The position numbers are program-made. DNA of 64,000 nt, taken from positions 1,024,001 to 1,088,000 of the forward strand of contig OY775910.1 of NCBI GenBank assembly GCA_963675245.1, given 5' to 3'. Of this stretch, positions 39,001 to 45,000 are shown one piece after another (the first letter of the stretch is position 1; each line of letters starts with the position of its first letter). This DNA is from Acholeplasmataceae bacterium. Lineage in GTDB: Bacteria; Bacillota_I; Bacilli_A; Acholeplasmatales; Acholeplasmataceae.

Positions 39001-42000
39001 ATTACGTCGTGTATCACGCGTTGTTAAATCCGATGCACAAGGTTTTGGTGCATATCTTCACCAAGGTGGACGTATTGCTGTATTAACTGTTGTTGAAAAA
39101 GACGATGAAGAAGTTGCTAAAAATATTGCAATGCACATCGCTGCAAACAACCCTCAGTACTTAAACAAAGATCAAGTGGATCAAGAAACACTCGAACATG
39201 AAAAACATGTCTTAACACAACAAGCATTACAAGAAGGTAAACCAGAGAATATCGTTGATAAGATGGTTATTGGTCGTCTTAACAAATTCTTAAAAGATAT
39301 CTGCTTAGTTGATCAACCTTATGTTAAAGATCCTGATCAAACTGTTGCTAACTATTTAAAATCAAATGGTAATAATGTTTTATCATTCAATCGCTTAGCT
39401 GTAGGTGAAGGCATTGAAAGCAAAGCTTGTGATATAGCAGAAGCAGTAGCAGAATTAACAGGTAAATAAAAACAAAAAAGGGAGTGTGGCAACATGTATC
39501 GTAGAGTCATCTTAAAACTCAGTGGTGAGGCTTTAAAAGGCAATGGTGCGTATGGTATTCATCCATTAACGGTTAAAGGAATTGCCACAGAAATCAAAGA
39601 GATTTACGAATTAGGCGTAGAAATTGGTATTGTCATTGGTGCTGGTAATCTATGGCGCGGAAAAACAGGTGAAGAACTTGGTATGGATCGTGCACAAGCA
39701 GATTACATGGGTATGTTAGGAACTGTGATGAACGGACTTGCCTTACAAGATGCGTTTGAGCATGTGAGTGTTCCAACACGCGTTATGACAGTTTTACCGG
39801 TCAGTGCCGTCGCAGAACCGTATATCAGAAGACGGGCATTACGTCATTTTGAAAAAGGCAGAGTACTCGTATTTTCTGGTGGTACAGGAAGCCCATTCTT
39901 CTCAACAGACACTGCAGCAGCATTACGTGCCGCTGAACTTAATTCCGACATTATTTTAATGGCGAAAAATGGTGTTGAAGGTGTTTATGATAAAGATCCT
40001 AAAAAACATGAAGATGCTATCTTGTTTGATGAAATTTCACAAAATGAATTATTAAAGAAAAATTTACAAGTAATGGATCAAACAGCTGCATCAATTTGCC
40101 GAGAAAACAAATTAAACATTCTCGTCTTCAATATGAATGAACCTGGAAATATTAAACGAGCAGTCATGAAAGAAAAGATTGGAACACTCGTTAAATGGGA
40201 GGATTAACATGAACGAACAAGCTGATCTAATGTTAATGGAAATTGAAGAACATATGCAAAAAACAATCGAAGCACTCGAAAGAGAATTTGCTGCTGTCCG
40301 CACTGGTCGTGCAAATCCAGCACTTCTTGACCATGTGAATGTCGATTATTACGGGGCTGAAAGTCCAGTCAGACAAATTGCATCCGTTTCAGTGGTTGAA
40401 GGTAATCAACTTTATATTAAACCATATGATAAATCTATTCTAAAACAGCTTGAAACAGCAATTTACGCATCTGACTTAGGTTTAAATCCGATTAATGATG
40501 GACTTGGTTTAAGATTGATCTTACCTCAACCCAGTGAAGAAAGACGTAGAGAACTTGTGAAAGTTGTCGATAAAGAAGCTGAAGAAGCGAAAGTCGGTAT
40601 TAGAAATATTCGTCGTGATGGTAATCACCACTTAAAAAAATTGGGATTAACAGAAGATGATGAAAAAGGATATCTTGATGATGTTCAAGATTTGACGGAT
40701 GAATTTATTAAAAAGATTGATGAGTTATCAAAAGAAAAATCTCAAGAATTAATGAAAATGTAAAAGGCTTTGGCCTTTTTCTTTTTTCATAAATATGATT
40801 CTATGAATCATGTTATCATTCACATATAATTAAAAACATTTATTTTAACGTTGAAATCGGTTATAATAATGGAAGGTGATTGAGCTTGGAAAATAAACAA
40901 ACGCCAAAACATGTCGCGATTATCATGGATGGTAATGGCAGATGGGCGAAAAAACGTGGACAACCCAGATCTTTTGGTCATTATATGGGTGGAAGAAATC
41001 TATTTAAAGTTGCTAAATTAGCTAAAGATATGGGTATTAAAAAACTATCTCTTTACGCTTTTAGTACGGAAAATTGGAAACGTCCTAAAGAAGAAATAGA
41101 TTATTTATTTAAAACACCAGTTGAATTTTATGAAAAGCGAAAAGCTGATATAGCAACCATTGGTTATCAAATAATTTTTTCTGGAAGAAGAGATCGTCTC
41201 CCTAAAGAGTTATTAAGAGTCATTATTGAAATTGAAGAAACAACATCTAAGTTTGATGGGTTTGTATTAAATATATGCCTTGACTATGGGTCATATGATG
41301 AAATTATTACTGCGTTTAATCAATTAACACCACCCATCACTAAAGAAGATTTAGAAGCTCATTTGATGGTTAAAGAACCAGTTGATTTACTCATTAGAAC
41401 GAGTGGTGAACAACGCTTATCTAATTTTATGTTGTGGCAAGCAAGTTATGCAGAATTTTATTTCACTAAAATACATTGGCCTTCTTTTGGTAAGAAGCAA
41501 CTTAAAAAAGCTGTGAATAGTTATCAAAAGAGACATCGTCGTTTTGGGGGTCTCAAATGAAACAACGCGTGATCACAGGTGCCATCTTAATCGCAATACT
41601 CCTACCGATATTTACCATAAGTATCTTTTTCGAAGTGTTTGAAGTCTTTATGATATTCTTTGTGATCGTAGCAGCATTTGAATTAATTAAAATGTATGAA
41701 AAAGAAAAACCATTTCACCCAATAGCTAAATTTGGCATTGTTGGTTTGACATTAGCAACGTTTATTAGTATGTCATCTGTTTTTCAACCAACAGATAACC
41801 CACTTGTTAAAGGCGATATACTGACGATCATGATTCCAATTATTACGTTGATTTTATTTGGTTTTATGGCATTATTAAAAGACTTCAATGGGGTGGATGT
41901 CGGAAAAGCATTAACGGTTGTCAATTATGTTGGGTTAGGTTCTGCAGCAATTGTCATCTTAAGAATGATTGGTGTGCGTTTTATCGTATATTTATTTTTA

Positions 42001-45000
42001 ATTACGATGTTAACTGATACGTTTGCGTTTTTGATTGGATCAAAATATGGCAGACATAAAATGGCACCTCATATTTCACCTAAAAAATCTTGGGAAGGTG
42101 CAGTTGGTGGTGCGTTAATCGCGACTGTATTCGCATCTTTATTCGCTATTTTTTATGGGTATGTTTTCGTCCCAGGCACGGCATTAGGTGATTTATTTAA
42201 CTCAACAGGAGAAAGAACATTATTAGAAAACTTTTCTAGTTTAGCTGATGGTGTCCCACTATGGGTACAATCACTTGTCTTGGTACCAATTACGTTGGTT
42301 GCAAGTTTCCTTGCGCAAACAGGTGATTTAGTAGCTTCACGTTTGAAAAGAACATATGATATAAAGGATTTTGGAAATATTTTACCAGGACACGGTGGCC
42401 TCATGGATCGATTTGATTCTGTATTGTTCGTCGCAATGTTCTTGGTTGCTGCGTTCTTGATTATTCAGCAAATATATCCACTCTACGCCGTATGAAAAAT
42501 ATCTACTTATTAGGAGCAACAGGCTCAATTGGAAAACAGACCATAGATGTCATTAAGGCGCATGATAAGCAATATAAATTAATTGGTGTATCTTTAGGTA
42601 GAAATGATAAAGATAATGATCAAATATTAAGTGACTTTCCGATCGAAATTGCATGCCTAAGATCAGATGAAAAATTAAAGCTATATCAAACAAAATATCC
42701 TAAAGTGACATTTGTTGTTGGTGCCGAAGGATTAATCAAAGTCGCTAAATATCCTAAACCTGGATTGGTCGTGAACGCATTATCGGGTTCTGCGGGTTTA
42801 AAACCGACGGTAACTGCTATTAAACAAAAAAAGAGTATCGCATTAGCGAATAAAGAAACACTTGTGATGGCTGGCGATTTAATTAAACGTTACATAAAAG
42901 ATTATGAGGTTGAATTATATCCTATTGATAGTGAACATAGTGCTATATGGCAAACATTGGCACATGAACGTCCATCTGATATTGAGAAAATCGTTATCAC
43001 AGCTAGTGGTGGAGCTTTTAGAGATTTAACAAGAGATGAATTAAATGACGTGACTGTAGAAGATGCCTTGAAGCATCCAAATTGGTCAATGGGACCTAAG
43101 GTGACCATTGATTCTGCAACCATGATGAATAAAGGGTTAGAAATCATTGAAGCACACCATTTATTTGATTTACCTTACGATAAGATTGAAACAGTATTGC
43201 ATGCTGAATCTGTCGTACACGGGTTAACTTATTTTAGAGATGGTAATATCAAAGCGAGCCTTGGTGTTTCAGATATGAGAATTCCTATTGCATATGCGCT
43301 TTCTTATCCAAAAAGATTCGCATATCATCAATCTTTAGAACTGACAAATCTCAGTTTTAAACCAATGGATTTTGAACGCTTTCCACTATTGGAATTAGCC
43401 TATCAAGTTGGAAAGATAGGTGGGCTATTGCCGACGGTGTTGAATGCGGCAAATGAAGCAGCAGTAAAACTCTTCTTGGAAGAAAAGATTACGTTTCTTG
43501 GCATAGAAGAAATTGTGTTCCGTACCGTTAGAAAATTTAAGAACAAACTAAATCCGACCCTTGAAGATATATTGGAAACGGATCAGAGCACACAACAAGC
43601 AATTATTGATTACTATGAGAAGAGGTAGAGCATGGTTATATTAAATATATTATTATTCTTATTTGTACTAGGTATTATTATTTTAGTACATGAAGCAGGA
43701 CATTTCTTTTTCGCGAAAAGAGCAGGCATTTTATGCCACGAATTCGCAATTGGTATGGGACCTGTTGTTTATCAAAAAAGAAAAGGCGAAACGGTTTATT
43801 CAATAAGAGGTATTCCTATTGGTGGATTTGTCTCAATGGCAGGAGAAGCTGTAAGCGACGCATTAATTAATAAAGAACAAGTGATTGGTTTGAGGATTAA
43901 TGAACAAGGTAATGTTTATGAAATTATCTTAACTGATAAACTTGAAGCAGATGTGATTGGTAAAGTCGTTGATTATGACTTATATGGCAAAGATTTTAAT
44001 GAACTCTATATAGATATAGAAAGGGAAGGTGTGGTGACACACTATCCTGTCGTTAGAGATGCTGTTTATCAATTAGGTAAAAATCGCACGATGTGGATTA
44101 CACCAGAAGAGAAGAGTTTTGAATCCAAAACGTTATGGCAAAGATTCTTGGTCGTTTTTGGTGGACCAATGATGAATTTCATCTTAGCTTTCTTGATATA
44201 TTTAATTATTGGATGGTTTGTTCTAGTTCCAACTGTTGAATCAAATGAGATTGCAGATGTGGCTGAAGGTTATTCAGCTGATATGGCTGGCATAGAAGCT
44301 GGTGATCAAATCACATCAATATCAGTTGATGGTACAGCTTATGCGATTAATAGTTGGAGTGATCTCTCGCTTGTGATGGATCAACTAGCCACGACTCAGA
44401 TTGATGTCACGGTTCTTCGTGATGACAATGAAATAACGTATAGCGATTTAAATCTATCTGTTTATATTCAATCAGCGGGACTTGCTAATTTAACTACTGA
44501 CGGTGAAATTCTTAATAACGGACCAGCTGTTTTAGGTCAAGCATATGGACGTGCTAGTTCAAATGGAAGGTTAGAAGCTGGTGATGTAATCAATAGTATT
44601 GTTGCTGGTGGCGTCACTTATGATATCACTAGTTGGGATGATATTATCGCGACATTTAAAGTGGTAACATCTGGTGATATTGTCATCAATTACACAAGAG
44701 ATGGTATCAATGATATAGCATCATATTCACTATTAAGTCAAAACGCACTAGAACAGTTAGGGCACGAAGCAATCGTCTTCCAATTAGGGGTTACAGCAAT
44801 GAGTCATTTTGATTTTAGCTATTCCTTATTATATGCGCCACGCGCGTTATGGAGTAATGTTCGTGAAGTGTTTGTTACATTAGGATTATTATTCAGCCCT
44901 GCAGAGAATTTGGGTATTGGAGATTTATCTGGTCCAGTTGGCATTTTCTCACTTGTTAGTTCAACTGCTAGTCAAGGTTTCTTATCAGTCTTAGCGTTAA

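Follow-up and report, generated by a model that had tools for sequence, protein, structure and literature searches.

An intact UppS and a complete MEP pathway without a recognizable primer synthase in an Acholeplasmataceae genome: possible priming on DMAPP

The genome of this Acholeplasmataceae bacterium encodes a complete MEP pathway and one enzyme that is, by profile, fold and catalytic residues, a cis-prenyltransferase of the UppS type, and it lacks the FPP-supplying trans-prenyltransferase that accompanies E,E-FPP-specific UppS. This combination, which had been claimed in a preliminary description, was borne out by profile, six-frame and tblastn searches. The best explanation, which we favor tentatively and place just short of probable, is that slow priming of an ordinary UppS on DMAPP yields an all-cis carrier. 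UppS would accept DMAPP as the allylic primer, and elongation, with neryl-PP and Z,Z-FPP as intermediates, would give an all-cis polyprenyl diphosphate that serves as the glycan carrier. Such priming would most likely be a slow side activity of an ordinary UppS rather than the property of a re-engineered active site, and it may suffice where FPP is no longer consumed for peptidoglycan, quinones or pigments.

In the window, the 64,000-nucleotide stretch of contig OY775910.1 analyzed here, uppS is located on the forward strand (40880..41560; PF01255, TIGR00055), followed on the same strand by cdsA of the phosphatidate cytidylyltransferase family (41557..42495; PF01148), dxr (42492..43628; TIGR00243, 436 bits, cut-off 316) and a gene for an rseP-like M50 peptidase (43632..45215), the last of an frr-uppS-cdsA-dxr-rseP run, which is a standard gene order. 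Translated from the TTG at 40880, UppS is 226 amino acids long; the TTG at 40886 is the likelier start because it is better spaced to an AAGG. UppS scores 247 bits against PF01255 (cut-off 27; E 2e-73) and 236 bits against TIGR00055 (cut-off 110), and its 174 bits against NF007596 (cut-off 418) are uninformative on substrate. As cdsA is the sole PF01148 member over cut-off in this genome, a separate CTP-dependent prenol kinase from this family is absent.

The remaining MEP genes complete the set (dxs, dxr, fused ispD-ispF, ispE, ispG and ispH by Pfam and NCBIfam), and IspH makes both IPP and DMAPP. Genes of the carrier cycle are also present in this genome, namely those for BacA, a DUF368 translocase, a priming phosphoglycosyl transferase of the Bac_transf type and a Wzx flippase. 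An assembly gap is ruled out as the cause of the missing trans enzyme, as the assembly is a single contig with no N and is 99.96% complete. PF00348 has no match in this genome at E ≤ 10, with a positive control in 14 of 14 genomes. Unfiltered hmmsearch of 28,318 six-frame segments gave best E-values of 1.4 with a 7-sequence trans-prenyltransferase profile and 1 with a 26-sequence profile, and the best tblastn E-value in this genome was 0.14. When proteins were screened for a pair of aspartate-rich motifs with the usual spacing, 25 of 26 control enzymes passed, as did 10 of 521 soluble proteins here, all of which we take to be other known proteins. These searches together exclude a missed or divergent ispA.

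Other primer sources of known type were likewise sought in this genome. PF00494 (squalene/phytoene synthase), PF01040 (UbiA) and PF01884 (PcrB) have no match, and nothing exceeds the cut-off for PF19086 (terpene synthase), to which a weak match is part of a 785-aa protein, presumably PheT; these families are therefore rejected as a source. The single PF01255 match at E ≤ 10 is UppS itself, which rules out a second cis enzyme making the primer and hence a relay of the mycobacterial type, consisting of a short-chain Z-FPP synthase and a long-chain enzyme. At the site where Bacilli were said to carry ispA, xseB (contig 10806-10991, minus strand) and dxs (contig 8977-10803, minus strand) are indeed only 2 bp apart, and ispA is present between them in 12 of 20 loci chosen from the class list. 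Thus, ispA is cleanly gone from this site and no gene took its place.

UppS itself is, to judge from its sequence, intact and maintained. Residues D17, N19, H34, S62, N65, R68, E72, R173, R179, S181, E192 and G223 are invariant in 181 aligned rows; their roles in catalysis and diphosphate binding are those we assume from E. coli UppS. All 113 rows that come from genomes lacking the trans enzyme keep 13 catalytic-region residues, and the C-terminal RxG tail is present here as RRFGG. The dN/dS values of 16 close pairs are 0.05–0.19, which indicates purifying selection; the median is nominally higher without the trans enzyme (0.13) than with it (0.08). The model of UppS built from 106 sequences has a pLDDT of 93 (43 for a single-sequence model, which is unusable) and matches solved cis-prenyltransferases with TM scores of 0.85–0.93 and fold-match E-values down to 1e-27, although fold comparison does not separate FPP-primed from DMAPP-primed enzymes.

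By sequence and fold, the closest matches (E about 1e-58) are the bacterial UppS of B. subtilis (7jli), S. pneumoniae (4q9m, 5kh4) and S. aureus (4h8e), which have 40–44% identity and TM scores of 0.85–0.93 and share the catalytic residues and gene neighborhood; these enzymes are primed with E,E-FPP from IspA, whereas this genome encodes no trans enzyme. The DMAPP-primed tomato enzymes NDPS1, zFPS and CPT2 (7vpc, 5hxn, 8wu6) have the same fold (TM 0.88–0.90) at about 40% identity, but make short (C10–C20) plastid terpene precursors instead of a carrier lipid. By sequence, UppS is nearer to the bacterial enzymes (E 1e-59 to 1e-55) than to those of plants (1e-50 to 1e-48), whereas the zFPS and NDPS1 structures and those of bacterial UppS match its model about equally well. 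zFPS primes on DMAPP with the Asn of its DGN motif (Asn88) retained, as is N19 here (PMC7839719), and it also appears to keep the His, as read from the names of H103Y mutants and a 15-residue spacing. In the plant cis enzyme VoDN3985, single substitutions raise DMAPP use, and those favoring DMAPP are located at the positions of N19 and H34 (PMC13737982), both of which are canonical in this UppS.

Several lines of evidence are thus consistent with DMAPP priming: the capacity of a plant enzyme of the same fold, the lack of an alternative synthase in a complete genome, the maintenance of UppS and the retention of BacA in 118 of 159 genomes without the trans enzyme. Also, S. aureus survives loss of both FARM-type synthases in a hepT ispA double mutant, which is viable with UppS (PMC12345219). 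Against it, the preliminary description had cited a statement that UppS enzymes from other bacteria do not accept DMAPP, and this statement is present in the Discussion of that source (PMC12345219). Neither a DMAPP-primed bacterial UppS nor an all-cis bacterial carrier was found in searches of a mainly open-access literature with little of the older UppS enzymology. Furthermore, no UppS residue appears to track loss of the trans enzyme: in nine independent pairs, none did so (median sign-test p = 1 for 7 of 8 tested positions). A60C occurs in 38 of 113 rows without the trans enzyme and in 0 of 68 rows with it, but neither A60C nor loss of Leu79 is significant as a marker of loss in independent pairs.

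The gap extends far beyond this genome. In the order, PF00348 is found in 7 and UppS in 142 of 186 genomes, and the trans-prenyltransferase is missing in 135 of the 142 genomes bearing UppS; in the class, the respective numbers are 93 and 251 of 301, and the trans enzyme is missing in 132 of 213 genomes with UppS and IspG. The earlier counts differ from these with the samples, although the pattern is the same, and the gap described for nearly all Acholeplasmatales holds for them but is class-wide rather than specific to this order. Absence of PF00348 in genomes other than this one is defined by a filtered profile search, and 19 of the 132 genomes are single contigs. On the UppS tree, presence and absence of the trans enzyme require 17 changes, at least 9 of them forced by well-supported branches, so that a latent ability to use DMAPP fits better than a single invention. 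Repeated ispA loss in reduced Bacilli would be understandable if a slow DMAPP side activity suffices there. More tentatively than for the single genome, a large share of the reduced Bacilli, comprising Acholeplasmatales and a number of related orders, may build an all-cis carrier with one enzyme from DMAPP and IPP.

A complete MEP pathway is no proof that flux reaches UppS, because MiaA is present in all 80 genomes tested (of 161 listed); it is found even in 8 of 8 IspG-positive genomes without UppS. MiaA thus explains the keeping of MEP and IDI without flux to UppS, and retention of MEP or IDI without MiaA, which would have pointed to such flux, was not seen in the 80 genomes. Family f10 is instructive here. 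In 22 genomes of this family, UppS and MiaA are each kept in 22, whereas IspG and HMG-CoA reductase are found in none, type-2 IDI in none over cut-off, IspH in one and GHMP kinases in two; a further 12 genomes of this family have BacA without UppS. The single IspH excludes uptake of HMBPP for conversion by IspH. Since UppS and MiaA persist in this family with no known source of IPP, uptake of isoprenoids probably happens in this class.

The assertion that UppS must use DMAPP or an otherwise unrecognized source of FPP therefore stands only in part: no known primer source was found, but uptake is a serious rival, given the near absence of IPP-pathway genes in family f10. In that case, FPP, GPP, or farnesol or geraniol that is then phosphorylated, would come from neighbors, host or medium to a normal, FPP-primed UppS, or part of the finished polyprenyl phosphate would be imported via BacA and the DUF368 translocase; we regard uptake, with this variant included, as unlikely but well worth weighing. 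In S. aureus, mvaA mutants are rescued when 80 uM FPP is added (PMC4790635), and the species can use Und-P supplied from outside (PMC12826051); the lack of an adaptive signature in UppS is as expected for a normal enzyme. The whole MEP pathway is kept in this genome, however, with no second CTP-type prenol kinase and nothing over cut-off for PF01219 (the DgkA/UdpK type), and close relatives come from biofilm and environmental assemblies, where free prenyl diphosphates are presumably scarce; import of the finished carrier would also leave the purifying selection on UppS unexplained. Rickettsia, reported to keep UppS without a short-chain FPP synthase and to draw isoprenoids from its host, is a precedent, but it lives in host cytoplasm and misses the upstream MEP and mevalonate genes (PMC6854040). 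With all MEP genes present, this genome does not share that scavenger trait, and family f10 is the more Rickettsia-like.

Somewhat less probable still is an unrelated, unrecognized enzyme that forms GPP or FPP from DMAPP and IPP for an ordinary UppS. It would fit the report that UppS cannot use DMAPP and also the missing UppS signature, and a 'third synthase' has been proposed for the S. aureus double mutant (PMC12345219). The searches made here detect known families and aspartate-rich motifs; five family searches and the motif screen yielded no candidate, the ispA site has no replacement gene, and even the 0.9-Mb genomes of family f15 would have to encode such a protein. A reading to which we give little credence is that UppS has no normal carrier role, with the pathway decaying or giving a short or irregular DMAPP-derived product, and MEP serving MiaA only. 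Bactoprenol synthesis has been called 'deteriorated' for want of FPP synthase in one genome (PMC7761423), and BacA occurs somewhat less often in genomes lacking the trans enzyme than in those that have it (85 of 92), being found in 0 of 19 scored genomes of family f15; the universal MiaA and the slightly higher dN/dS without the trans enzyme point the same way. By contrast, purifying selection and the full conservation of catalytic residues argue against decay, the head-to-middle enzyme LPPS has His at the position where N19 is kept (PMC7839719), and BacA, DUF368, priming transferase and Wzx are all present in this genome. In family f1, UppS and BacA are missing from the same 2 of 23 genomes.

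The gap is not new to the literature: uppS and MEP without ispA are noted for RFN20/RF39, in 3 of 4 genomes, with the FPP source called 'unclear' (PMC7301438), and the same gap was read as decay in the single genome of Ca. Bathyoplasma NZ of the Izemoplasmatales (PMC7761423). DMAPP priming, class-wide counts and selection tests on UppS do not appear in the passages of these two papers considered here. The S. aureus double mutant resembles this genome in having UppS and no FARM-type synthase (PMC12345219), but is engineered, slow-growing and kept on rich medium, and still has CrtM and other prenyltransferases; here the state is natural and the squalene/phytoene synthase, UbiA and PcrB families are missing too.

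How the carrier lipid is started without IspA was stated as an open question in 2025 (PMC12345219), for which a wall-less bacterium with UppS and no starter enzyme is a simple test case. Most confounders are removed here, because there is one prenyl-chain synthase and there are no quinone, pigment or HepT-type enzymes; cultured relatives of the same genotype exist. Among these, Anaeroplasma bactoclasticum ATCC 27112 and the strains MO-XQ and zrk7 carry UppS and IspH without any PF00348 match, whereas Acholeplasma granularum ATCC 19168 does have the trans enzyme. If the ability to use DMAPP is latent in ordinary UppS, this ability would be the 'third synthase' still missing in S. aureus, and textbooks would be wrong in requiring E,E-FPP for bactoprenol. 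Each main outcome would be informative, whether a bacterial carrier that is all-cis, an FPP synthase of a new fold or scavenging by non-intracellular bacteria, and a cis enzyme that naturally builds long chains on DMAPP would serve the production of all-cis polyprenols.

UppS of this genome also has the substitutions N40, R103 and D135 (DYG for NYG), and the stretch after helix 138–147 is about 10 residues shorter; neither feature is seen in the bacterial UppS compared. The three substitutions occur in 7 of 7 family members with the trans enzyme and are missing from families f11, f20 and f26, which are without it, so that they are a lineage marker rather than an adaptation to DMAPP. R103 is present in 86 of 87 rows with D135, a co-occurrence suggesting that the two are probably a compensating pair.

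The uppS gene, encoding the cis-prenyltransferase (PF01255), lies at window positions 40880 or 40886 to 41560 and is followed by cdsA (41557-42495), dxr (42492-43628) and a gene for an M50 peptidase. The genome is a single contig of 1,626,300 bases with zero N (99.96% complete). Pfam and NCBIfam matches confirm each component of the preliminary description, namely the MEP set (dxs, dxr, fused ispD-ispF, ispE, ispG and ispH), UppS, BacA and a priming transferase, and also reveal miaA. The last-named transferase (Bac_transf) belongs to a glycan cluster with several glycosyltransferases and a Wzx-type flippase. 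A gene for a DUF368/PopT-like polyprenyl-phosphate translocase homologue, divergent from bacA, is located at contig positions 665670-667458 (L192) in this wall-less bacterium.

As the claim concerns an absence, the whole genome was tested for a trans-prenyltransferase (PF00348). No match was obtained at E<=10, whereas the control matched in 14/14 genomes. Because the tool used for PF00348 applies a first filter, profiles were built from 7, then 26 trans-prenyltransferases of relatives and run with filters off over 28,318 six-frame segments, giving best E values of 1.4 and 1, respectively; the best tblastn value was 0.14. A normally spaced pair of aspartate-rich motifs was found in 25 of 26 control enzymes and in 10 of 521 soluble proteins of this genome, all 10 of which we take to be other, recognised proteins. 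These searches bear out the absence of the enzyme. The genome has only one cis-prenyltransferase, and no member of the squalene/phytoene synthase, UbiA, PcrB or terpene-synthase families scored over the cut-off.

In Acholeplasmatales, PF00348 occurs in 7/186 genomes and UppS in 142/186; the trans enzyme is absent from 135 of these 142, in line with the proposal that nearly the whole order shares the gap. An evenly drawn sample of 301 genomes of the class Bacilli_A (>= 95% complete) contains UppS in 251, IspG in 222 and PF00348 in 93, and 132 of the 213 genomes with both UppS and IspG, 19 of them single contigs, have no trans enzyme. Most order and class genomes are metagenome assemblies to which only the filtered search was applied, so single absences in relatives are less certain than in the studied genome. 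On a UppS tree of 181 sequences from 180 genomes, mostly the best-scoring among the matches listed, presence or absence of the trans enzyme requires 17 changes of state, and well-supported branches force at least 9 of these. The gap is thus real but not confined to Acholeplasmatales: the pattern is class-wide and has arisen repeatedly.

For sister lineages the gap is already in print, without explanation. Four RFN20/RF39 genomes have uppS and MEP genes, three of them lack ispA, and the FPP source was called 'unclear' (PMC7301438); an Izemoplasmatales genome also lacks an FPP synthase, which was read as deterioration (PMC7761423). Repeated loss of peptidoglycan has been described in these orders (PMC10868615). 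The present analysis adds the scale of the gap, a clean ispA deletion and evidence of UppS maintenance.

The expected position of ispA in Bacilli, between xseB and dxs, was found in 12 of 20 loci hand-picked from the class trans-enzyme matches; in one the gene follows xseB without dxs, and in 7 it lies elsewhere. In the studied genome, xseB and dxs are separated by 2 bp within the run nusB-xseA-xseB-dxs-tlyA-recN, and the loss of ispA is a clean deletion. Seven members of its family carry a trans-enzyme gene with no dxs within 1.5 kb, which suggests relocation or regain. In one of the 12 xseB-dxs loci (L207:1603-4236; G348:C40), ispA and dxs share one 878-codon open frame, which may be a genuine gene fusion or the result of misassembly. 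The open frames of two trans-prenyltransferases of another family, f10 (L208:3451-4872 in G310; L209:2869-4230 in G225), span 454-474 aa and include a long extension at the N-terminus. These enzymes are divergent, sharing 27-28% identity with the family enzymes; their genes lie outside the xseB-dxs site and were probably acquired separately.

UppS itself appears to be maintained. Thirteen residues (D17, N19, H34, F61, S62, N65, R68, E72, R173, R179, S181, E192 and G223), whose catalytic-region roles we assume from E. coli UppS, are kept in 113/113 sequences from genomes without the trans enzyme. Among 29 close pairs, which are not independent, 23 had usable dS, and dN/dS was 0.05-0.19 without the trans enzyme (16 pairs) and 0.06-0.16 with it (7 pairs). 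BacA accompanies UppS in 118/159 genomes without the trans enzyme versus 85/92 with it, and in the own family (n=23) the two genomes lacking UppS are the two lacking BacA. The UppS model (pLDDT 93) is an ordinary cis-prenyltransferase, resembling FPP-primed bacterial and DMAPP-primed tomato enzymes about equally in fold comparison. Together, these results argue against decay.

Compared with bacterial enzymes of solved structure, Acholeplasmatales UppS is distinguished by N40, R103 and D135. This signature occurs in 11/12 own-family sequences without the trans enzyme. It was rejected as a DMAPP adaptation because it also occurs in 7/7 with it and is missing from families f11 (0/10), f26 (0/5) and f20 (0/8 sequences without the trans enzyme); it is a lineage marker. 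Throughout the order, and in some related families, D135 turns the usual NYG motif into DYG. R103 is present in 86 of 87 sequences with D135; the two probably form a lineage-specific salt bridge. No tested position follows trans-enzyme loss (9 independent pairs; 7 of 8 tested positions). Substitutions at the positions of N19 and H34, both canonical here, increase DMAPP use by a plant cis enzyme (PMC13737982); zFPS, a natural DMAPP user, likewise retains Asn (PMC7839719), so that canonical N19 argues neither for nor against DMAPP use. Six UppS of family f13 (L039-L054), three from genomes with the trans enzyme and three without, have Thr where the DGNGR motif normally has its conserved Arg.

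MiaA consumes DMAPP. It is present in 80/80 genomes tested, in 10/10 of family f15 with UppS and IspG and in 8/8 IspG-bearing genomes without UppS, so MEP retention needs no flux into UppS. UppS here still has no known primer source, but MEP retention is no proof of such flux. G029, G030 and six class genomes have IspG and MiaA but neither UppS nor the trans enzyme; tRNA modification is apparently all that their MEP pathway serves. Conversely, 22 f10 genomes (e.g., G203, G235, G244, G261 and G274) retain UppS and MiaA without a trans-prenyltransferase, with IspG in 0, IspH in 1, HMG-CoA reductase in 0 and type-2 IDI in 0 over the cut-off; GHMP kinases occur in 2/22, both next to nucleotide-sugar genes. 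With no known IPP/DMAPP route among these searched enzymes, import or a third route is implied, and these cells probably import prenyl units, as Rickettsia is reported to do (PMC6854040). Twelve further f10 genomes have BacA without UppS.

The IPP supply differs within the own family, f1: some genomes have MEP, some the whole mevalonate route and some just its lower part. UppS is kept and the trans enzyme mostly missing in all three states. Its genus g9 has lower-mevalonate genes (kinases, decarboxylase and type-2 IDI) at L283 (G032:C1:355573-358830), L290 (G033:C2:318031-321282) and L284 (G034:C124); HMG-CoA reductase and IspG were not found in G032. A membrane-protein gene lies immediately upstream of the kinase gene, and its product, which presumably resembles TctA, is a candidate mevalonate importer.

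The studied genome thus encodes capacity for IPP and DMAPP, one intact, conserved cis-prenyltransferase and a carrier cycle, and whole-genome family, profile and motif searches found no known GPP or FPP source. Tentatively, UppS is predicted to start on DMAPP, probably slowly, yielding an all-cis product. With wall, quinones and pigments lost, demand would be low and slow priming sufficient. Such an ability, if latent, could explain repeated trans-enzyme loss without a signature in UppS. PMC12345219 cites an earlier suggestion of UppS as a possible FPP maker and, on two references, states that DMAPP is not used by the UppS enzymes of other species. Passages of PMC3563533 and PMC13586052 hold nothing decisive on the primer question. 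In the literature searched (mostly outside subscription journals, supplements excluded), neither DMAPP priming of a bacterial UppS nor a bacterial carrier of all-cis geometry was reported.

Uptake of prenyl units as the primer source is rather unlikely here: the f10 genomes and Rickettsia offer precedents, and S. aureus can use added FPP (PMC4790635) and added Und-P (PMC12826051), but the whole MEP pathway is retained and neither a DgkA-type kinase nor a second CTP-type family member was found. Provision of the primer by an unrelated synthase is unlikely; a third synthase has been proposed in S. aureus, whose hepT ispA mutant is viable in TSB (PMC12345219). That UppS is a relic, or serves a non-carrier role, is highly improbable, the invariant residues, low dN/dS and ordinary model speaking against a relic. 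For the predicted DMAPP priming, this genome is a case with little to confound it, and relatives of the same genotype are in culture.

The cluster of glycan genes that includes the priming transferase (contig 1131524-1157061; L194, L195) comes after two integrase-like genes. It ends in genes that presumably resemble those for phosphonate-synthesis enzymes, and the cluster may be an acquired island producing a phosphonate-decorated polysaccharide.
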